A stretch of 24,943 nt of DNA from IMG/VR virus record IMGVR_UViG_2534681742_000001, positions 1-24,943 of that record. One strand, written 5' to 3'. Shown piece after piece: positions 8,078-21,774 of the stretch. The translations under genes were made by a program, and so were the position numbers. The stretch comes from a virus. Lineage: Duplodnaviria; Heunggongvirae; Uroviricota; Caudoviricetes. The notes below the pieces were generated by a model. The model ran no database searches. It was not told where the DNA came from and saw only the letters and a program-made list of their open reading frames with translations. How positions within the stretch are numbered: position 1 is the first letter of the stretch; each line of letters opens with the position of its first letter.

Positions 8078-8537
8078 CCCACTTGCTCACCAGTTCACCA
8101 TTGATATAAAGCTCCATCGGGCGGGTGACCGGCTCCGGCGGCGTGGGTTCCGGGATATTCTTCACATGCAGTGCGCCGTCCACCTCACTGACCAGCGTGC
8201 GCTCGGTCAGCATCAGGCTGATGCTGATATCAAAGCTGCTGTCATTGTTGATGTCTGCATAAAACGTGAAGCCCTTTTTCTGGCCTGCGTCGGTGGTCAT
8301 GATGTCGGGCTGATTTTCCCGCAGCCACGCCAGCACCGGCACAATGAGCAGGTCAAAATCACCGGTAAAGTCGGTCACAATCACATTGAGCGTGTAACGC
8401 TTTTCGAATGACAACGACGTCGCCAGTGTGGAGGCAATACTCCCGTTATCCACGAATATCCGCAGCATATCGGGGTTAGTTTTCAGCACCGTGACGGCAT
8501 CAGTCAGCGCCCTGCGCAGGCTGTCGGGTTTGAGCAT
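8070..8537 (-). CDS. R: Tail completion protein R
   Basis: 155-aa ORF, P2 gpR-like, syntenic after the lysis genes. Confidence 0.8.
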   Translation of the reverse strand: MLKPDSLRRALTDAVTVLKTNPDMLRIFVDNGSIASTLATSLSFEKRYTLNVIVTDFTGDFDLLIVPVLAWLRENQPDIMTTDAGQKKGFTFYADINNDSSFDISISLMLTERTLVSEVDGALHVKNIPEPTPPEPVTRPMELYINGELVSKWDE

Positions 8538-8790
8538 CGTTTTCGTCCTGACAGTGTTTAATCATTTTTACCTGGCTGGCACAGCGTGCCAGCGCGTTCT
8601 CAAGCTGCCGGATATCGGCACTTAAATCGCCGTTCGTCTGCGGGTCACTGCCCGGCATCGGGCAAAGGCTCACTTTCGGGCAGGCGTTGTGGACAATCAC
8701 TGGCGTCTGCGCAGGCCGGGCGCTGGTGCAACCGGCGCACAGCATCAGGCAGGTCAGCACCGTACCAGCGGCGAAAATCTTCGTTTTCAT
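8500..8790 (-). CDS. lysC: Rz1-like outer-membrane lipoprotein spanin (LysC), embedded out of frame in lysB and overlapping R
   Basis: ATG at 8790-8788 with GAGG upstream; MKTKIFAAGTVLTCLMLCAGCTS... has a lipobox (LCAGC); 96 aa, the same length as P2 LysC. The 135-aa track ORF has an unlikely N-terminal extension. Confidence 0.6.
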   Translation of the reverse strand: MKTKIFAAGTVLTCLMLCAGCTSARPAQTPVIVHNACPKVSLCPMPGSDPQTNGDLSADIRQLENALARCASQVKMIKHCQDENDAQTRQPAQGAD

Positions 8791-9070
8791 TGAGTAACCT
8801 CGTGATGGTTTTCTCGCGCTGTGCTTCACGCTTCGCGGCGTTCTCCAGTTCCTGACGCAGTGCCACCTGCGCCAGCTCGTTTTTGTCTGCCCTGGTGATG
8901 GCAACATGAAGCTGATTTTTCAGCATGGTGATGGTCGTCTGCTGTTCACTGGCGACGTTATTCGCCCTGTCCAGCGAGGCGCGCAGGCTGGCATTTTTGT
9001 GTTTCACCAGAAACAGACCGGCCACCGCCAGCGATAACAACACGACCAGCACAATCATCAGCTTTGACAT
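8645..9070 (-). CDS. lysB: Rz-like inner-membrane spanin LysB
   Basis: 141-aa ORF with N-terminal TM helix MSKLMIVLVVLLSLAVAGLFLV and coiled-coil-like body; P2 LysB position. Confidence 0.8.
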   Translation of the reverse strand: MSKLMIVLVVLLSLAVAGLFLVKHKNASLRASLDRANNVASEQQTTITMLKNQLHVAITRADKNELAQVALRQELENAAKREAQREKTITRLLNENEDFRRWYGADLPDAVRRLHQRPACADASDCPQRLPESEPLPDAGQ

Positions 9071-9483
9071 AGTTCCCGCCCCTCAAAACGCTGACGGCAG
9101 GCCGTACGTATCAGCCGGAAGAACACCGACGCCACGAGGTAAATCAGCGCAGTAAAAATCCACCCGGCAGCGACCAGCGAGATAAACGTCGCCACCATCA
9201 CCACCAGAGCCGCCGCCCGTCTGCGCCACGGCACCGGCTGCAAAAACAGCGACGTGACAATCTTCACGGCCAGCGATTCCGGCGGCAGCTCCCGCCCGTA
9301 GCGTTCAAGTACATACTCGGTGGCATACACGCCGACACCACCGGCAACCACACAGATAACCGTCGCCAGAATCGCCCAGGCAGCGACAAAACTGACGGCC
9401 ACGCTCTGCGGGTAAATCAGGGACAGTGCCAGCATCAGCGCCAGCGACACGTTCAGCATCAGAGAAAGGGATAATTTCTTCAT
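9058..9483 (-). CDS. lysA: Lysis regulatory membrane protein LysA
   Basis: 141-aa multi-TM ORF between K and lysB, as in P2. Confidence 0.8.
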   Translation of the reverse strand: MKKLSLSLMLNVSLALMLALSLIYPQSVAVSFVAAWAILATVICVVAGGVGVYATEYVLERYGRELPPESLAVKIVTSLFLQPVPWRRRAAALVVMVATFISLVAAGWIFTALIYLVASVFFRLIRTACRQRFEGRELCQS

Positions 9484-9497
9484 GGTGTTTACTCCGT

Positions 9498-9995
9498 TTA
9501 AGCCGGTGCGCCGCCAGCGGTACGCCAGACGGTGACCAGTTTTTCCAGTGAATGCTCACGCTGACCGTAACCGGCACCCGGCAGGGACGCCCAGATATTG
9601 CGACAGCGTGAAATGGCGCGCTCAATGCGTCCCGCCCGGATGTCATCCAGTGCACCGCGTTCGCGGATCAACTGAATGGCAAGTCTGTCCTGTGACAACG
9701 GGCTGAAATCCGGCAGGGCAAGCTGTTTGCGGTAATGCGGCCAGAACAGGTAAAGCTGCTGATAGCGACCGGAGGCCGTGGATTTTTCACCGCGACGGTT
9801 AAACACCTTCGCCGGTCGGCCATGTGCGAACGGGTGGTCACTGTAGTCGGTGAAAATTTCCGGCTTCCCGTCCAGTCCGGTGACTATCACGTCATAGCCC
9901 CGGTTTTTCGTCAGCGGATGGTTTGCCGTCCCTTCGGACACGGCCAGCATGTCGAGAAAGGCGGCGATATTCTGATGCGTGTTAATAACCGGCAT
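9498..9995 (-). CDS. K: Endolysin (lambda R-like lysozyme / transglycosylase)
   Basis: 165-aa ORF MPVINTHQNIAAFLDMLAVSEGTANHPLTKNRGYDVIVTG..., P2 gpK-like. Confidence 0.85.
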   Translation of the reverse strand: MPVINTHQNIAAFLDMLAVSEGTANHPLTKNRGYDVIVTGLDGKPEIFTDYSDHPFAHGRPAKVFNRRGEKSTASGRYQQLYLFWPHYRKQLALPDFSPLSQDRLAIQLIRERGALDDIRAGRIERAISRCRNIWASLPGAGYGQREHSLEKLVTVWRTAGGAPA

Positions 9996-10276
9996 TACGG
10001 TTTCCCCCTGCCCTTAAAGCGGCGCTGAATGGCAATCTCAATCACCTGATAACCGGCGATACCCAGCATGGAGCCGATGCCGCACACCGCAGGCAGTGAC
10101 AGGTCAGGAAACTGCACCAGAACAACACCGGCAACCATCGAGACAAAACCACCGAGCAACATGCGCCCGATAAACAGACGCGGGGTGATGGGTTCACCAC
10201 CGGCAAGCACCTTGCCGACAACAATCAGCACTCCAATCATGAAAAGCGACAGGACGCTTTTTTCTTCTGCTGTCAT
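9995..10276 (-). CDS. Y: Holin
   Basis: 93-aa ORF with TM segments, immediately upstream of the endolysin (ATGA-type overlap). Confidence 0.8.
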   Translation of the reverse strand: MTAEEKSVLSLFMIGVLIVVGKVLAGGEPITPRLFIGRMLLGGFVSMVAGVVLVQFPDLSLPAVCGIGSMLGIAGYQVIEIAIQRRFKGRGKP

Positions 10277-10279
10277 GCG

Positions 10280-10483
10280 TTACTCCCACAGATTGACAGT
10301 TTCAGCCACGGGCGCGGTCTGAACGTCGGGCAGTTCGACGGCGGTGCCGTGCGGCAGCACCGCGCCCAGTTCAGCCAGTCCCGGATTTGCGGCGAGCACG
10401 GCTTCGACCACGCCCTCAGTGCGCCCGTAATACCGGACACAAATGGCGTCGAGCGTGTCGCCCTGTAGCGCAAAGGTCTTCAT
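10280..10483 (-). CDS. X: Tail protein X (LysM-like)
   Basis: Internal ATG at 10483-10481 gives MKTFALQGDTLDAICVRYYGRTEGVVEAVLAANPGLAELGAVLPHGTAVELPDV... (67 aa, P2 X size), overlapping the L stop (TGATG). Confidence 0.7.
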   Translation of the reverse strand: MKTFALQGDTLDAICVRYYGRTEGVVEAVLAANPGLAELGAVLPHGTAVELPDVQTAPVAETVNLWE

Positions 10484-10992
10484 CAGATTTGACTCACGAT
10501 GCAGCGCGGCTTGTCCTGGATGCGCGCCACTGCCCAGCGCATATCCCGCCACAGCTCATCAATGGTGCTGTCAATGCTGTCGGCCTTCTTGTCGCCTTTC
10601 GCACTGGCATCCACACCGCGATAACGTTCATAAAGTGACGCGGTCGCCATCGCACACACGGCGCGCTCGTAGTAAAAAACTTTGATGCTTTCACCGTCGA
10701 TGTCGTCCGCCGGGACGTCCGCCAGACGCGTAAAACCGGCAGCAATTTTCTGTTCGCGGTACTCGTACAGCTCCGCATTCGTTTCAGCCATGCCTGACTT
10801 GATGGCCTCACGCAGACGGGCGGGGGCGACGGTCTGCTCAAGGCGCATACGTTCCCGGACGCGCTTCGGGTCGATATCGGGAAAAAAGAACGTGTTTTTA
10901 ATCACCGGCTCGTCGCCTGCCGGTTGCGGGATGACCACCGTACCCTCACCGGATACGGGAGCCTCCTTTCGCGGAATAATCAGCGTCATCAT
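10483..10992 (-). CDS. L: Head completion / stabilisation protein L
   Basis: Start MMTLIIPRKEAPVSGEG... at 10992 with GAGG upstream; 169 aa as in P2 L. The track ORF is longer. Confidence 0.8.
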   Translation of the reverse strand: MMTLIIPRKEAPVSGEGTVVIPQPAGDEPVIKNTFFFPDIDPKRVRERMRLEQTVAPARLREAIKSGMAETNAELYEYREQKIAAGFTRLADVPADDIDGESIKVFYYERAVCAMATASLYERYRGVDASAKGDKKADSIDSTIDELWRDMRWAVARIQDKPRCIVSQI

Positions 10993-11091
10993 GACTACCT
11001 CTGAAAAGTCGGGCGGTGGACGCCGGTGCAGTGTCAGGTGATTCACCCTCACTGACCGGCGTGCCGCCCTGGCGCGGGGCGCATTCGGTTG

Positions 11092-16993: not shown

Positions 16994-17140
16994 CGCCCGC
17001 TTCATGGGGTGGTTTTAATGCAGATGCACGAACACGCCGGAAGCGCGCCAGCACCAGCGGCGCTCACACGTGACCGGGAAGGAAAATGCATGCGATTCGA
17101 TGCAGTAATGCATGCAGAGCTAAAAATGGCAGAACATACT

Positions 17141-17179
17141 GAAAAAACGCATAAAAAACCGGCATTCAGGTTGCCGGTT
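17141..17179 (-). terminator. Rho-independent terminator ending the early/replication operon
   Basis: Minus-strand reading AACCGGCA-ACCTGAA-TGCCGGTT followed by TTTTTTATGCGTTTTTT; about 145 bp downstream of the last coupled ORF. Confidence 0.6.
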
Positions 17180-17323
17180 TGAGTCGGCTTCATTGTGGTT
17201 ACTGGCCGCGCTATGCGCCAATAATACCAGGAGTCAATCTGATAACCAGCTAACGCCTCGCTACGCTCGTTGTTCAACCCCGCCAGCCCTGAAAACAAGT
17301 TTCACGACTGGCGGCGTTCTCTA

Positions 17324-17527
17324 TCATCTGCGTGGTGGTGACATAACTCTTGATTGACCGATATGATTAAACCGCCCGTAATTATCCCGGACTATTTCGG
17401 CACACCCGACCAGCTCATCGGGCGTCAGATTTTCGTTGACCATAATCCGCTGTAAACGCTGAACAATAGCCATCAGCTTGATATTTTTAGTTTTATGGTG
17501 CGGTATCTCGCATGGTATTCTGTGCAT
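17324..17527 (-). CDS. Hypothetical small protein (67 aa), translationally coupled to the upstream DUF3850-like gene
   Basis: ATG at 17527-17525 overlaps the upstream stop (TAATG); MHRIPCEIPHHKTKNIKLMAIVQRLQRIMVNENLTPDELVGCAEIVRDNYGRFNHIGQSRVMSPPRR; AT-rich relative to the core genes. No homology recognised. Confidence 0.35.
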   Translation of the reverse strand: MHRIPCEIPHHKTKNIKLMAIVQRLQRIMVNENLTPDELVGCAEIVRDNYGRFNHIGQSRVMSPPRR

Positions 17528-17982
17528 TATCCAAGCCACCCGTTTTGCTGTGCACGCTCCATCTGTTCATCTGAATAGTTCCATGCTCCATCCGTGGCAA
17601 CCATTGCCCCGCCAGACATCCCCGTCTCTGGTTCATACATAACAGCAAGGCCGAGCTGATGCATAATTTCATGATTAATTCTGAATACCAGACCACGCTC
17701 ACTAAGTTCTTTCCAGTTCACAATCTCATATGCGCCTGTATTAAGCAGCTCAATACTTAGCAAGACATAATCTTCCAGCCAGTCTGACAGGTCAGTAACA
17801 TCTGTTATCCGGGCTTCAACCTTTCGCCCCGTATACACACCCTGTACCCATTCATGCAAAATCAACGTGTCCCCGCGCTCATAATTACGGTCATTTTTCC
17901 GAAACTCTGCGCGTTTCTTTCCTTCCAGCACAAGGTCAAAATATTTGGCGTGCAGCTTTACCTCGTGAATTTTTGCCATCAT
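17527..17982 (-). CDS. DUF3850/ASCH-like (PUA-fold) domain protein with a unique C-terminal extension carrying an HExxH motif
   Basis: Start MMAKIHEVKLHAKYFDLVLEGKKRAEFRKNDRNYERGDTLILHEW... overlaps the A stop (ATGATG); the N-terminal ~75 aa fit the DUF3850 pattern as I recall it; the C-terminal ~70 aa contain INHEIMHQLG. Confidence 0.6.
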   Translation of the reverse strand: MMAKIHEVKLHAKYFDLVLEGKKRAEFRKNDRNYERGDTLILHEWVQGVYTGRKVEARITDVTDLSDWLEDYVLLSIELLNTGAYEIVNWKELSERGLVFRINHEIMHQLGLAVMYEPETGMSGGAMVATDGAWNYSDEQMERAQQNGWLG

Positions 17983-20270
17983 TTCCACTCCATTACTGTT
18001 GAGAATCCCGGCCACTCATCAGCGACCGGATACGTGAATTTTTTCCCGTCATAATTTACGGTCGCGCCACGCGCCAGCGCCTCAAGCTCCCATCGCTGCG
18101 GCCTGATACCGTTCTGAGCAAGGTCAACGCGGATACGGGTAATTTGCATTCTTTCCGACCGGGTCAGTCTGGCCGATGGTGCAATTTCATGTGGCTTTAA
18201 CGGGCTTCCGTTTCTTTGCTGACGGTTTGGCGTTCGCAGGTCGTGTTTTAATGCGCCCCTGAGCGCCCTCACGACCTCCGGTTCATTCCATTCAATAACA
18301 CCGTCATCAACCAGATTAAGCACTGCTGCGGCGTGCTCAGAAGGTGTGGGAGCCGGTAACGAAGCATCACCGCCGGTGAGCTTTCCACAGTTATTGACAG
18401 GACTCCGAGGCGCGGCGATGCCGCTTTTTAAAGTCAAAGGCTCAACGACCGGAACTTTCGGCACAATGCGCCAGTCCGTCGTTCTGGTGATATGAATATG
18501 ACGCGCGCCGAGATGCGGCGCGTAAATGCCGACCACTCTCTCGACTTCTTCCTCGTATTCGTTAACGTCATCCGACGGGCTACGGGCGACCCTGACAGTC
18601 TGACAATCGCGCGGGACATTTGCCCCGCCCTGCGCGCTGATATACAGCGCAAAATCGCCACTGTCTGCGGCGGCGCGTGCAGCCTCCACGCGTTCGTCAA
18701 ATTCATCAGCAATGCTGACGCCGCGAGGCAATTTACGTAGCTCACGGTAAGCTCCCATTGTCGGCAGGCCAACCGTTTTAAATTGCGGGATGCGCCACGT
18801 TGACGCCCATGCGGTAACAGCCGCCGCAGTATCTTTCAGCGGTCTGCCGGTATCGTTATCGAGCTGACCATCCAGTGCATAGCCGTCGATATTTTTTGAA
18901 ATGTATTTCGCGATATATCCCGCAGCACCGCCCCGGTTAAGGTGTTTTGCCTGAAAACGGTTTCGCGCGGCTCCTCTTTCGTCGCCATCCTCTTTGAGCG
19001 CATAGCGATGCATGATTTCGATAATCTGGTTACGCTGGCGTGGATTACAAAAAAGCATCATATGCCAGTGCGGCGTTCCGTCGTGGTGTGGCTCGACGAC
19101 TCGCAAACCGTAGACCTGTAAATCATTATCCTTGAATGCCGTGCGCATCAGGCTCCAGATACGGCAGAGATAACGCTGCGCATCCTTCGGATTAAATGCC
19201 TCATCATTCCAGCCGTGATTAAGCTGGACGGTTTTACTTTCGCCTTTTCCGACCTGACGTGTCGGGTGATACTTTGACGGCGCGGTCAGCGTGATAAACA
19301 TCCCCACATCACCCTCTGCGGCGGCGTAACGCTCAATACCGGCAATGGTGTTCATCAGCTCCATCCGGCGAATTTCAGGATTAGAAATACTGCCCATCAC
19401 CTTACTGATAAGGTCGATGCGTTCGCCGGTTTCCCTGTTTTCAAGGTCACACGATTTAAGAAACTCCAGATTTGCCTGACGGCGCGCACGCACATCACGA
19501 ATGGCATGTTTACTGGCATAAGGAGAACGGTCTTTATTGACCTCCCCGACAGCTATCAATAACGCCTCATGCCAGCGCATACGCTGGCCTTTAAGCTGAT
19601 GAGTCCACCACTCATCGTTAAACAGACGGGCAATGGCAGAATATGCCTGCCTCGTGGTCATCTGTCCTTTACGGTATTTTTTCCAGTAAAGCGGGGAAAT
19701 ATTGAAAGCACGTGCAGCGCCAGCAACATGACCATACAGATGCGCCTGCGCCTCATCCGTAAACAGCGATACTTTTTCGCCATGCGCATCCACCCAGGCA
19801 TCGCAGAGTTCCTCATACATCATGAAAAGCTGCGATGAGATACGGGCGGCAAACTTTTTCAGCTCCTTGTCATTCATTCCCGGCAGGCGCGCATAATGGT
19901 CACGCTCTGCCAGAAACAGCAACGACGCGTCGGTGTTCATTTCATGGCGCTGATTCACACGCTCAATGCGCGGCCATAAACGACGCTGAAAAGTGGATGT
20001 GAGGAAATAAAACCCGTGTACCGGGCTTTTATTGCGCCGGATGTAGTCATAGCGTGAAGTAAACAGCGAGCGCAAAAAGTAAGGCAGGCGGTTAATCGTG
20101 GATAAAACACCTTGCACCTGACGCATCTCGTCACGTGTAAGGGGTCTTTCGCGCCCGACGGCCTCGCGTGGCGCGTTCCATGCATAAGCACCGGTAAACG
20201 CCTTACCGGTGCCTGCAGCAAATGCTGACGGAGGTACGCAGGTGTATTGCTCCTGGAAAGAATGACTCAT
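17979..20270 (-). CDS. A: Replication initiation endonuclease A (rolling-circle initiator)
   Basis: 763-aa ORF, size and sequence character of P2 gpA; position between the early genes and cos. Confidence 0.9.
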   Translation of the reverse strand: MSHSFQEQYTCVPPSAFAAGTGKAFTGAYAWNAPREAVGRERPLTRDEMRQVQGVLSTINRLPYFLRSLFTSRYDYIRRNKSPVHGFYFLTSTFQRRLWPRIERVNQRHEMNTDASLLFLAERDHYARLPGMNDKELKKFAARISSQLFMMYEELCDAWVDAHGEKVSLFTDEAQAHLYGHVAGAARAFNISPLYWKKYRKGQMTTRQAYSAIARLFNDEWWTHQLKGQRMRWHEALLIAVGEVNKDRSPYASKHAIRDVRARRQANLEFLKSCDLENRETGERIDLISKVMGSISNPEIRRMELMNTIAGIERYAAAEGDVGMFITLTAPSKYHPTRQVGKGESKTVQLNHGWNDEAFNPKDAQRYLCRIWSLMRTAFKDNDLQVYGLRVVEPHHDGTPHWHMMLFCNPRQRNQIIEIMHRYALKEDGDERGAARNRFQAKHLNRGGAAGYIAKYISKNIDGYALDGQLDNDTGRPLKDTAAAVTAWASTWRIPQFKTVGLPTMGAYRELRKLPRGVSIADEFDERVEAARAAADSGDFALYISAQGGANVPRDCQTVRVARSPSDDVNEYEEEVERVVGIYAPHLGARHIHITRTTDWRIVPKVPVVEPLTLKSGIAAPRSPVNNCGKLTGGDASLPAPTPSEHAAAVLNLVDDGVIEWNEPEVVRALRGALKHDLRTPNRQQRNGSPLKPHEIAPSARLTRSERMQITRIRVDLAQNGIRPQRWELEALARGATVNYDGKKFTYPVADEWPGFSTVMEWK

Positions 20271-21274
20271 TCACATACACCGGCATAGACACTACTGCAA
20301 ACTGACTTATCATTCACCGAAGCCAGCAAATCAAACTGTGCCCCGCCACGCGTGGTCATCGCCCAGTCACGATAAGACTCAATTCCGTAAGCATCGACAG
20401 TAATAATATCAATGCGGCGTTCCGCACGACGCGGGTCATGAGTTGACGGGAAGAAAGTAGAATTTCCGCGTCTGGAGCATGCGGCGACAAGTCGCTCCCA
20501 TTCCGCAACACGCTTAACCTCTTCCGGCCAGCGACTAAAAATTTCAGCTAATTCAGACTTTCTGGCGTGGATGCAGGGCATACAACCGACACGACTGCAT
20601 CCCTGCTGGTATAACGGATTAGGTTTAATTCCATGACGTCTTGCAAATGCAAATACCTCCTCATGCGTCCAGTTCAGAATAGGACGGTATACATGGAGCC
20701 CGGGCGTATTGTCCGCATCCTCTTCCCAGGCAGGCAGACCCGCGCGCGCAGGAGACTCCTGAGCGCGAACCCCCTGCCAGCTAATTACCTCATCAAACTC
20801 ATTAAGCGCAGGTAACACGACCTGAGTACGTACTGGCTCATGTTTAAGGTCAAAAGTGCAAAATCTGGCTTTAGTGGAAGGAAATCGCCCTTTCCACATG
20901 CACAAATCAAGAAATGGGATACCAGTAGGCTTGAGAATTTCCAGCGCACAATTGATGCGCTCTGCCGCTTCCCCCGGAGACATTCCGCACTCTTCAACCA
21001 GAGAAACAGGCCATTTCTCAGCAATAAACTTGCGCTTACCTTCAATCTGTCGGGAGAAGTCAGCTTTAACCCGTTTAACCGGCCCGAGTCGGTTCTCCAG
21101 ATAATCGAGATACTCCATTGTCTGCGGATGCTCATGCCCGGTGTCTGCAAAAACCGGCAAAAAATGCACACCGCTTTCAATACCAACAAGCCATTGAGCA
21201 AGGCTATCCTTTCCGCCAGAAACAGAAATAATATTGATAGAGCTTTCAGCTCGGCAGCGGGTATCAACTATCAT
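20267..21274 (-). CDS. PAPS reductase-family PP-loop protein (DndC/CysH-like fold), function unknown
   Basis: SVSGGKDS PP-loop motif near the N-terminus; cysteine cluster CSRVGCMPC; ATGA-coupled to the flanking genes. Confidence 0.7.
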   Translation of the reverse strand: MIVDTRCRAESSINIISVSGGKDSLAQWLVGIESGVHFLPVFADTGHEHPQTMEYLDYLENRLGPVKRVKADFSRQIEGKRKFIAEKWPVSLVEECGMSPGEAAERINCALEILKPTGIPFLDLCMWKGRFPSTKARFCTFDLKHEPVRTQVVLPALNEFDEVISWQGVRAQESPARAGLPAWEEDADNTPGLHVYRPILNWTHEEVFAFARRHGIKPNPLYQQGCSRVGCMPCIHARKSELAEIFSRWPEEVKRVAEWERLVAACSRRGNSTFFPSTHDPRRAERRIDIITVDAYGIESYRDWAMTTRGGAQFDLLASVNDKSVCSSVYAGVCE

Positions 21275-21774
21275 TTAGATTTCCCCGCACAGAGAAACGC
21301 AGTCAGACACTGCTGACCGAGCTGCTCAACCTGAGAGCTCAGCGCCTCAAAAGAGACAGCGTTACCGCTCAAAATATCGTGATGGATCAGACCGGAAACG
21401 AGCTGGTTTAATTTGGGGTAATAGCCGACAACATCCAGCCACTCTTTACCGGCATTCTTCCCGGTTTCAGCGATCTTTCTCTCCTGCAAAATGAACTGAA
21501 AACGGTCATTTGTGACGACATAACGCTCGCCAATCTCGATACGAATGCTCATGCCATTCTCCGGTAATGCTTGTTTTTTTGCTTCAAAGACTGACTGGCA
21601 GGAAACACAACGCGTGGCTGACGGATAAGCCGCACGACGGGCAGCAGGTATTGGCGCGTCACACTCTTCGCAAACCAGCGCAGAAACACCGCAATGTTTT
21701 ACCCTTGCCGCGTTAATCTGGCGCTCCAGTAATTCAGCCTGTTGTTCCTGAATAAAATCTACGTTGTCCGGCAT
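21271..21774 (-). CDS. TraR/DksA-family C4 zinc-finger protein with an additional C-terminal domain
   Basis: C-x2-C ... C-x2-C in CGVSALVCEECDAPIPAARRAAYPSATRCVSCQ; about 90 extra C-terminal residues. Confidence 0.6.
   Translation of the reverse strand: MPDNVDFIQEQQAELLERQINAARVKHCGVSALVCEECDAPIPAARRAAYPSATRCVSCQSVFEAKKQALPENGMSIRIEIGERYVVTNDRFQFILQERKIAETGKNAGKEWLDVVGYYPKLNQLVSGLIHHDILSGNAVSFEALSSQVEQLGQQCLTAFLCAGKSK

Follow-up and report, generated by a model that had tools for sequence, protein, structure and literature searches.

DndC, SspD and BrxP, the PP-loop subunits that insert sulfur in the DNA phosphorothioation systems Dnd, Ssp and BREX type 4, are proteins with a core of the 3′-phosphoadenosine 5′-phosphosulfate (PAPS) reductase superfamily and with Cys residues for Fe–S or sulfur handling. 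DndC is an Fe–S protein with ATP pyrophosphatase activity (PMC8569181; PMC10853773), and BrxP lacks the Cys dyad of DndC and carries extra alpha+beta and Cys-rich/DUF4007 modules (PMC12839542). Phage genes annotated as PAPS reductase or cysH have been classed in virome papers as auxiliary metabolic genes (AMGs) of sulfur metabolism without experimental test (PMC13369170; PMC8879888). PAPS reductases have also been found in Aca-regulated operons, and an anti-defence role was proposed in that 2026 study (PMC13551039). In podoviruses of Vibrio crassostreae, the transfer of two phage-specific genes (p0018 and p0019) made a sensitive phage fully infectious on a Dnd-carrying host, and p0018 of vibriophage 44E38.1 (Piel et al.) consists of a PAPS domain (amino acids 4–175) fused to a Dam domain (bioRxiv 10.1101/2021.05.05.442762). 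In this study, a gene of this kind was analysed in the IMG/VR virus record IMGVR_UViG_2534681742_000001 (Caudoviricetes), positions 1 to 24,943, hereafter called the window. The gene (20267–21274) encodes a PAPS-reductase-like PP-loop protein of 335 amino acids and belongs, as optional cargo, to the early (replication) operon of a temperate phage of the P2/186 type. Judged by sequence, this PAPS-like protein is a distinct branch of the superfamily that lies about as far from the reductases as from the phosphorothioation sulfurtransferases; it may act on nucleic acid in counter-defence.

The window gene is an ortholog of the already catalogued orf84 of phage 186. The window protein shares 82.3% amino acid identity with 186 Orf84 (CP84; NP_052288.1) over residues 2–335, and the lengths are 335 and 334 amino acids, respectively. 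Both genes lie between orf83 (DUF5405) and A with 4-nt overlaps at both ends, so that full-length identity, synteny and overlapping stop and start codons all place the window gene among the 186 Orf84 orthologs. The TraR and DUF5405 genes are fused in the window only; otherwise, the two loci differ in nothing of substance. The GenBank/RefSeq record of 186 states that 'translation to end of orf84 appears necessary for translation of A protein', and nothing on 186 orf84 beyond the GenBank note was found in the literature. Megablast detected 99.9% identical, annotated DNA in two records, Yersinia phage P37 and one under the name Peduovirus P2, and annotated proteins identical or 99.7% identical to the window protein were present in E. 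coli prophages and Yersinia phage P37. The protein database contained an identical E. coli sequence and more than 5400 homologs in all, and thousands of proteins with 75–90% identity came from Enterobacter, Salmonella, Citrobacter, Providencia, Yersinia, Pectobacterium and Serratia. Copies with 99.8–100% identity were found in 14 complete E. coli genomes and copies with 60–80% identity in 53 more (67 in total); the only close relatives of the gene are prophage copies. The gene had been pointed out in an earlier note made from the letters of the window; it is not unusual, and finding it in an early operon of P2/186 type is ordinary.

The occurrence of the gene in E. coli was determined with a cassette query comprising the TraR–DUF5405 region, the PAPS-like gene and the first 800 nt of A, which was compared with 5426 complete E. 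coli genomes. Matches were obtained in 1634 genomes, and coverage reached at least 80% in only 43 of them. In almost all other matching genomes, the flanks were 1281 bp apart versus 2305 bp, and the DUF5405 gene overlapped A directly. The PAPS-like gene is thus absent, with DUF5405 abutting A, in about 96% of the E. coli prophages carrying the region, which agrees with the earlier statement that P2 has only small orfs at this site; roughly 3–4% of E. coli P2-like prophages carry the gene. Prophages that are otherwise near-identical naturally differ in whether they carry it, and because gene A couples to DUF5405 where the PAPS-like gene is absent, A does not require the PAPS-like gene for its expression. 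Outside phages, distant paralogs of the PAPS-reductase family, with about 29% identity in the core, occur widely on plasmids, most of which are conjugative, and family members were found in 1556 plasmid records. In IncC plasmids (NZ_CP132696.1, 5494–6609 of the locus), a distant paralog is located about 1.5 kb from repA.

Conserved positions were defined as invariant or at least 90% conserved in an alignment of the window protein with 57 relatives (36–55% identical; 58 sequences). The SGGKDS PP-loop of the 335-amino-acid open reading frame (ORF), correctly noted before and confirmed here by the ORF list, the sequence and the Pfam family PF01507, has invariant G21, D23 and S24, and S19, G20 and K22 are at least 90% conserved. 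The conserved core continues in the N-terminal half with D44-T-G46, E48, D123, F131-P132, F138-C139 and K144, followed by G168-x-R170-x-x-E173-S174-x-x-R177, R197-P198, N219-P-L-Y222, R228-V-G-C231-x-P-C234, K239, W259-E260, W304 and G310-G311. They include motifs by which the core of APS/PAPS reductases binds adenine/ribose and phosphate, and its Arg-loop. Five cysteines are conserved (C139, C231, C234, C326 and C334): C139, C231 and C334 are invariant, and C234 and C326 reach at least 90%, as do S328, G332 and E335 around the terminal cysteine. Nearly all relatives end exactly in ...CE. The string CSRVGCMPC is present as the earlier note had described; its placement at the C-terminus was inaccurate, since it occupies residues 226–234, about two thirds along the protein, and its first cysteine (C226) is not conserved and is mostly Met in relatives.

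In an exhaustive HMMER scan of 1.84 billion representatives, 351 clusters had E<1e-30 and 983 had E<1e-10; their lengths were mostly 300–380 amino acids, and most aligned up to the very last residue. ORFs called in 84 related loci were full-length in nearly all cases (median 335 amino acids, with a few shorter calls). Against P2-like relatives, the nonsynonymous divergence (dN) was 0.07–0.30 with saturated synonymous divergence (dS), and dN/dS was 0.02–0.10 where computable. The PAPS-like protein is functional and constrained by strong purifying selection. A degraded pseudogene or a chance ORF was ruled out by the full-length relatives, dN/dS of no more than 0.1 and the conserved motifs; the decay in relatives that the earlier note had named as possible counter-evidence did not appear in the 84 loci.

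Superfamily membership was established by PF01507 (PAPS_reduct), which matched residues 15–236 with E 1.4e-35 and 123.3 bits versus a cut-off of 22.5; the protein also belongs to PHROG 424 (E 2e-84) and matched phrog_15238 (E 5.9e-88). The curated NCBIfam models for the reductases remained far below their cut-offs: PRK02090 CysH gave 66.8 bits versus 154, TIGR02055 for adenosine 5′-phosphosulfate (APS) reductase 55.2 versus 235.3, TIGR00434 cysH 45.6 versus 165.1, and TIGR02057 PAPS reductase 41.7 versus 254.2. The CysH-model matches spanned only residues 156–254, approximately. The NCBIfam DndC model TIGR03183 reached 22.6 bits versus 290.4, over residues 132–212 only. Partial matches were obtained with the PADLOC models of SspD (E 8.6e-22, 76 bits, profile positions 72–202 of 277; PADLOC gives no curated cut-off), BrxP (E 1e-15, 55 bits, positions 212–336 of 779, core only) and DndC (E 6e-7). 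All 58 of the aligned relatives matched the SspD and BrxP models, and 44 of 58 matched DndC. Eight of the 58 also matched the PADLOC model MTase_II (PDLC03333, 'Type II methyltransferase') via the PAPS core, with a best E of 1.9e-11, and therefore methyltransferase–PAPS fusions are implied within that model. Among longer subfamily homologs, no informative fusion was found: no clear extra Pfam domain was present, and there was one weak sub-threshold methyltransferase match. On these scores, the window protein belongs to no curated functional family. The relation to CysH and DndC proposed earlier holds as remote kinship to DndC, SspD and BrxP, and curated cut-offs leave the protein outside both the CysH and the DndC families; similarity to QueC, also raised before, is at PP-loop level only. 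Clear orthology to a housekeeping enzyme was not seen, as the curated models were missed by wide margins. A housekeeping cysH taken from a host was rejected as an origin, given the failing models, the phage-like composition and the restriction of close relatives to prophage copies.

The similarity to SspD, DndC and BrxP covers only the core of the window protein (residues 126–263). An intact PP-loop is found in the window protein and, as is known, in DndC and SspD (see also PMC10853773). By contrast, the window protein stands alone, without a cysteine desulfurase, an ATPase (DndD/SspC) or a DNA-binding or nicking partner (DndE/SspB). It falls well short of DndC and BrxP in size and possesses a helical insert and a C-terminal ...C-E tail of its own. 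The dndBCDE (plus dndA/iscS) context is missing, the neighbours in the window being TraR, DUF5405 and gpA, and no DndD/E-like family recurred in 56 dereplicated loci. The sspA/B/C context is likewise absent from the window and from the recurrent neighbours, and the window contains no BREX genes, which sets the protein apart from BrxP. E. coli YbdN/IbrA, a PAPS reductase with DUF3440 that is paired with the ParB-like YbdM/IbrB, shares the PP-loop PAPS-reductase core: in hhalign, YbdN matched the N-terminal ~210 residues with 97.6% probability, and the match ended at query residue ~224. However, YbdN has DUF3440 in place of the G-C-x-P-C region and C-terminal tail of the phage family, and the window showed neither a DUF3440 match nor a ParB-like gene, which places the protein outside YbdN/IbrA. 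A ParB-like neighbour as in IbrA/IbrB does occur in some phage relatives, such as phiE125 and Riah.

The AlphaFold2 model built on the family alignment had a mean predicted local distance difference test (pLDDT) score of 94.8 and a predicted template-modelling score of 0.92. In this model, SGGKDS (residues 19–24) directly follows strand E12–17, in keeping with a predicted PP-loop ATP pyrophosphatase, in which the motif closes the first beta-strand of a Rossmann-like fold. Model confidence was lowest in the last ~25 residues (pLDDT 67–80), and this Cys-bearing C-terminal tail is probably flexible. About 184 of the 335 residues superposed on APS/PAPS reductases (2goy, 7lhr, 1sur, 6vpu), whereas about 150 extra residues had no counterpart; the helical insert (approximately residues 74–130) and the C-terminal ~95 residues were without a solved counterpart. 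In profile-to-PDB alignments, the family 'vSGGkDS' aligned to 'SFSGAED' of APS reductase and to 'SSFGIQ' of CysH. Of these, only the phage family has the canonical ATP pyrophosphatase loop; the loop of APS reductase and CysH is degenerate and their substrate is pre-activated sulfate. Similarly, 'RVGCmPCi' aligned to 'SIGCEPCT' of P. aeruginosa APS reductase (PaAPR, 2goy) and 'SIGCAPCT' of the M. tuberculosis enzyme (7lhr), whereas PAPS reductases have 'SVG' without Cys where the phage family has CxxC.

In PaAPR, the [4Fe-4S] cluster is ligated by C139, C140, C228 and C231, while K144 is in contact with the substrate as well as with the cluster. Judged by the register of the motifs (K144/E146/P147; CC-x-x-RK-x-EP), C139, C231 and C234 of the phage protein correspond to three of these four ligands, and its K144 to the lysine. 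The CC pair of APS reductase is reduced to a single Cys in the phage family (F138-C139), and the other position is a conserved Phe. With the CxxC present and the CC pair halved, the four-Cys [4Fe-4S] set of assimilatory APS reductases is incomplete. The catalytic motif ECG[LI]H is absent from the window protein and from the 58-sequence alignment, and the family tail reads ...Y-G-L-C-E instead. A PDB chain named 'PptA' (21fy_C, 270 amino acids) was matched by profile positions 183–248 (E 1.3e-5); no literature was found for this name, and the chain may be an uncharacterised PAPS-reductase-like protein. The BFVD structure search returned only other 'PAPS reductase' labels.

Neighbouring genes were surveyed at 80 IMG/VR loci found by the family profile and at annotated phage and prophage loci, with five genes on each side and a Pfam scan. 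All-versus-all clustering of these genes at 87 loci and a Pfam census of 119 neighbours revealed no obligate partner, and no desulfurase, DndD/E or SspB/C was seen among the clustered or Pfam-scanned neighbours. DNA methyltransferases were the top functional neighbour class, accounting for 11 of the 119 genes within two positions at 34 dereplicated distant loci (7 C5, 2 N6_N4, 1 D12 and 1 Dam-PF05869); ParB_N and DUF4406 occurred twice each. In 10 of 22 dereplicated P2-like loci, a D12 Dam gene was located at −1 or −2, often with a 4-nt overlap and in the order Dam, PAPS-like gene, A. Burkholderia phage phiE125 encodes an N4-cytosine methyltransferase (gp56), the PAPS-like gp57 and the ParB-like gp58, with replication genes coming next. 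In Agrobacterium phage Rivra, the PAPS-like gene stands between a methyltransferase gene and a DNA methyltransferase gene, all with 4-nt overlaps, and Serratia phage Parlo carries Dam two genes downstream of the PAPS-like gene with an ASCH-domain gene nearby. A methylase lies two genes off in Stenotrophomonas S1 and three genes off in Acidovorax Alfacinha1. The association with methyltransferases, given here as raw counts, is suggestive and not proven. Proximity to replication genes also recurs, as seen for gpA in the window, the phiE125 replication module, IncC repA and Vibrio phage 1.047.O (344–4168 of the locus), in which a short PAPS-family gene is placed between a DUF3987 protein and a CHC2-type primase. 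In the latter phage, which is unrelated to P2, a CP83/DUF5405 gene lies about 1.8 kb upstream of the PAPS-like gene.

Taken by sequence, the closest functional analogues of the PAPS-like protein would be SspD, DndC and BrxP, not CysH. We tentatively propose that the protein is a stand-alone DndC/SspD-like adenylating sulfurtransferase acting on nucleic acid for counter-defence, a reading to which we give slightly less than an even chance. It is favoured by the intact conserved PP-loop and core motifs, the CxxC that aligns with the APS-reductase ligands, the below-cut-off reductase and DndC scores, the SspD and BrxP matches, the purifying selection, the cassette-like occurrence, the methyltransferase neighbours and the published links of phage PAPS genes to anti-defence. 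By analogy with ThiI, MnmA, TtuA/TtcA and DndC, the SGGKDS loop would split ATP into AMP and pyrophosphate and adenylate a substrate oxygen, after which a sulfur nucleophile would displace AMP. The nucleophile may be carried by a three-Cys Fe–S site (C139, C231, C234), by the C-terminal tail Cys (C326/C334) or by both, as a persulfide on a mobile Cys or as sulfide on the free iron of a three-Cys cluster, and sulfur could be loaded by the host cysteine desulfurase IscS. The target would be nucleic acid, most probably replicating phage DNA, judging from the genomic context and the vibriophage precedent. The purpose may be a self-protective modification or a counter-measure against modification-dependent defences of the Dnd, Ssp or BREX-4 type, evading host restriction, and the protein would often act beside a phage Dam or another DNA methyltransferase.

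Several points weigh against this proposal. No DndA/D/E or SspA/B/C partner is present in the window, as the earlier note had already observed, or recurrent in relatives, and known phosphorothioation needs such partners. No methyltransferase adjoins the PAPS-like gene in the window phage, and the methyltransferase neighbourhood could be a mere clustering of accessory genes in early regions. The 186 record lists orf84 as 'unknown function; not essential'. In a study of coral-vibrio phages, the PAPS gene was uncorrelated with the Dnd status of the host (PMC10945359); the products of this gene in the phages concerned, 367.14 and 97.13, share 32% identity with the window protein. Moreover, the sole experimental precedent, p0018, has a different architecture and was transferred with a second gene (bioRxiv 10.1101/2021.05.05.442762). 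Compared by description only, p0018 resembles the P2-like relatives in that a PAPS-reductase-domain protein is tied to Dam, fused there and encoded by an adjacent, overlapping gene in the relatives; it differs from the window protein in the fusion, in a shorter PAPS domain and in the transfer with p0019, and the window phage lacks Dam. A role in DNA modification or anti-restriction had been suggested in the earlier note; the methyltransferase neighbours and the vibriophage precedent favour it, whereas the non-essential status in the 186 record does not. Overall, the observation in that note was right, and its broad interpretation was reasonable and is partly supported.

Other explanations were considered. 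The cysH label given to such genes in virome studies implies that the protein is a true APS/PAPS reductase, or an enzyme in which sulfate activation and reduction are fused, and that it enhances sulfur assimilation of the host during infection. This view agrees with the PAPS-reductase fold and Pfam family, with the APS-reductase-type CxxC, with the Lys144-type motif and the Arg-loop, and with a C-terminal Cys tail that recalls the catalytic one of CysH/APS reductase, and PHROG 424 and several papers classify the gene as an AMG. We nevertheless regard it as quite unlikely, because the NCBIfam CysH, PAPS and APS reductase models gave 42–67 bits against cut-offs of 154–254, the ATP-splitting PP-loop is kept where reductases bind pre-formed APS or PAPS through a degenerate loop, the ECG[LI]H motif is absent and about 150 residues have no reductase counterpart. 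In addition, the surveyed loci are replication or early operons beside DNA methyltransferases and never beside cys genes, and E. coli hosts already possess cysH. Structural matches to the Fe–S tRNA thiolases TtuA and NcsA and to TilS and ThiI ranked just below the reductases, and a three-Cys cluster site combined with a PP-loop is the design of TtuA/TtcA. These likenesses, together with the lack of an encoded DNA-binding partner, are in line with an RNA- or nucleotide-directed PP-loop enzyme, either a TtuA/TtcA-like tRNA thiolase or a modifier of the nucleotide pool or of a cofactor, which would tune translation or shield tRNAs from host anticodon nucleases. Such an enzyme is unlikely here, as Pfam recognised no THUMP/PUA RNA-binding domain and no TtuA-type zinc fingers, the neighbours are DNA methyltransferases and replication genes rather than tRNA or RNA-modification genes, and the sequence-profile relatives are SspD, BrxP and DndC rather than tRNA thiolases.

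A non-catalytic decoy, mimicking DndC/SspD to bind and poison host phosphorothioation or restriction complexes, would explain the homology to DndC, SspD and BrxP subunits, the anti-Dnd effect linked to a phage PAPS domain and the lack of partner genes. However, the PP-loop, DTG, Arg-loop and Cys residues are invariant or nearly so in 58 relatives down to 36% identity, as is typical of an active enzyme, and neither Dnd nor Ssp is known from most E. coli hosts, so that we consider a decoy improbable. The protein might also be functionless, the only relevant role of the gene being to deliver ribosomes to gene A through translational coupling. The ATGA overlaps at both ends and the 186 note tying A translation to that of orf84 point in this direction, but the direct coupling of DUF5405 to A in the ~96% of related E. 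coli prophages lacking the gene, the strong purifying selection and the conservation of motifs across phyla and unrelated phage types make it highly improbable.

The positions of the genes and motifs are given in Table 1. Membership in the early (replication) operon, as stated in the earlier note, agrees with the overlap with A and with the consensus scan, which found no promoter-like site directly upstream of the PAPS-like gene on the minus strand. The base composition of the gene matches its flanks and is phage-like. The 4-nt overlap with the upstream gene is also annotated in E. coli C11 and in 186.

Table 1 Genes and sequence motifs around the PAPS-like gene of the window
Feature	Position	Strand	Basis
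PAPS-reductase-like PP-loop protein, 335 aa, ATG start	20267..21274	-	ORF list, PF01507, PHROG 424, phrog_15238, 186 Orf84 ortholog
PP-loop S19-G-G-K-D-S24, ATP pyrophosphatase signature	21203..21220	-	sequence
Invariant Cys139 within F-C-T-x-x-L-K144-x-E-P motif	20858..20860	-	alignment
G230-C231-M-P-C234, APS-reductase-type CxxC, putative Fe-S ligands	20573..20587	-	alignment
Tail C326-x-S-x-Y-x-G-x-C334-E335, putative mobile nucleophile or sulfur carrier	20270..20299	-	alignment
ATGA overlap, DUF5405-type ORF stop / PAPS-like gene start	21271..21274	-	sequence
ATGA overlap, PAPS-like gene stop / gene A start	20267..20270	-	sequence
Gene A, 763 aa, P2-type rolling-circle replication endonuclease	17979..20270	-	PF05840 Phage_GPA E 3.8e-123
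Upstream ORF, 167 aa: TraR/DksA zinc finger (aa 1-68) + DUF5405/orf83-like domain (aa 74-167)	21271..21774	-	PF01258 + PF17399

In the E. coli C11 prophage, whose PAPS-like gene is 100% identical to that of the window, TraR and DUF5405 are encoded by two separate overlapping (ATGA) genes. A homopolymer at 21574–21580 reads A7 in the window versus A6 in the E. coli C11 reference, and the fusion in the window is explained by this one extra A. The other closest relatives also matched one base shorter across the stretch and had two separate genes annotated. The seventh A may stem from an error in sequencing or assembly, from slippage or from a genuine frameshift mutation. Since TraR and DUF5405 are separate in relatives, the gene physically coupled to the PAPS-like gene is the DUF5405 gene (P2 orf83/186 CP83-type). 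The ATGA coupling described in the earlier note thus stands for both overlaps, and the upstream partner, taken there for a TraR-like gene, is really of the DUF5405/orf83 type.

Downstream of the PAPS-like gene, the 3′ end of gene A is overlapped for 37 nt by the start of a gene (17527–18015, minus strand) for a 162-amino-acid protein with DUF3850/ASCH (PUA-like) and DUF7415 domains. ASCH-like genes near PAPS-like genes were also observed elsewhere, as gp28 of Serratia phage Parlo and in the IMG/VR neighbour clusters 14 and 25, which are ASCH-like by eye, the cluster-14 representative being without a Pfam hit. PUA-like domains often read modified bases, and a functional link between the ASCH/PUA-like gene and the PAPS-like gene is conceivable. 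In the E. coli C11 prophage (8396–11008 of the locus), a C5 DNA methyltransferase and a BbrUII/HgiDII-type restriction enzyme directly follow gene A; the same place in the window (17000–17979) is occupied by the ASCH/DUF3850 gene instead. The region downstream of gene A looks like a variable cargo hotspot.

It is doubtful, yet conceivable at low probability, that the single phage polypeptide installs a sulfur mark on replicating phage DNA by using ATP and host IscS or persulfide without Dnd/Ssp helpers. Such a mark might take the form of a phosphorothioate or of a thio-base, and its placement may be guided to Dam/GATC sites or coordinated with them. If true, the PAPS-like protein would represent a minimal one-protein DNA thiomodification system, and the label 'phage cysH AMG' would be wrong for this family. 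The common 'cysH AMG' label is in any case poorly supported by sequence for the PAPS-like family, and virome surveys routinely count such genes as auxiliary genes of sulfur metabolism. As a dispensable gene in the tractable phages 186 and P2, it offers a convenient entry to the stand-alone PAPS-reductase-like proteins of phages and plasmids.

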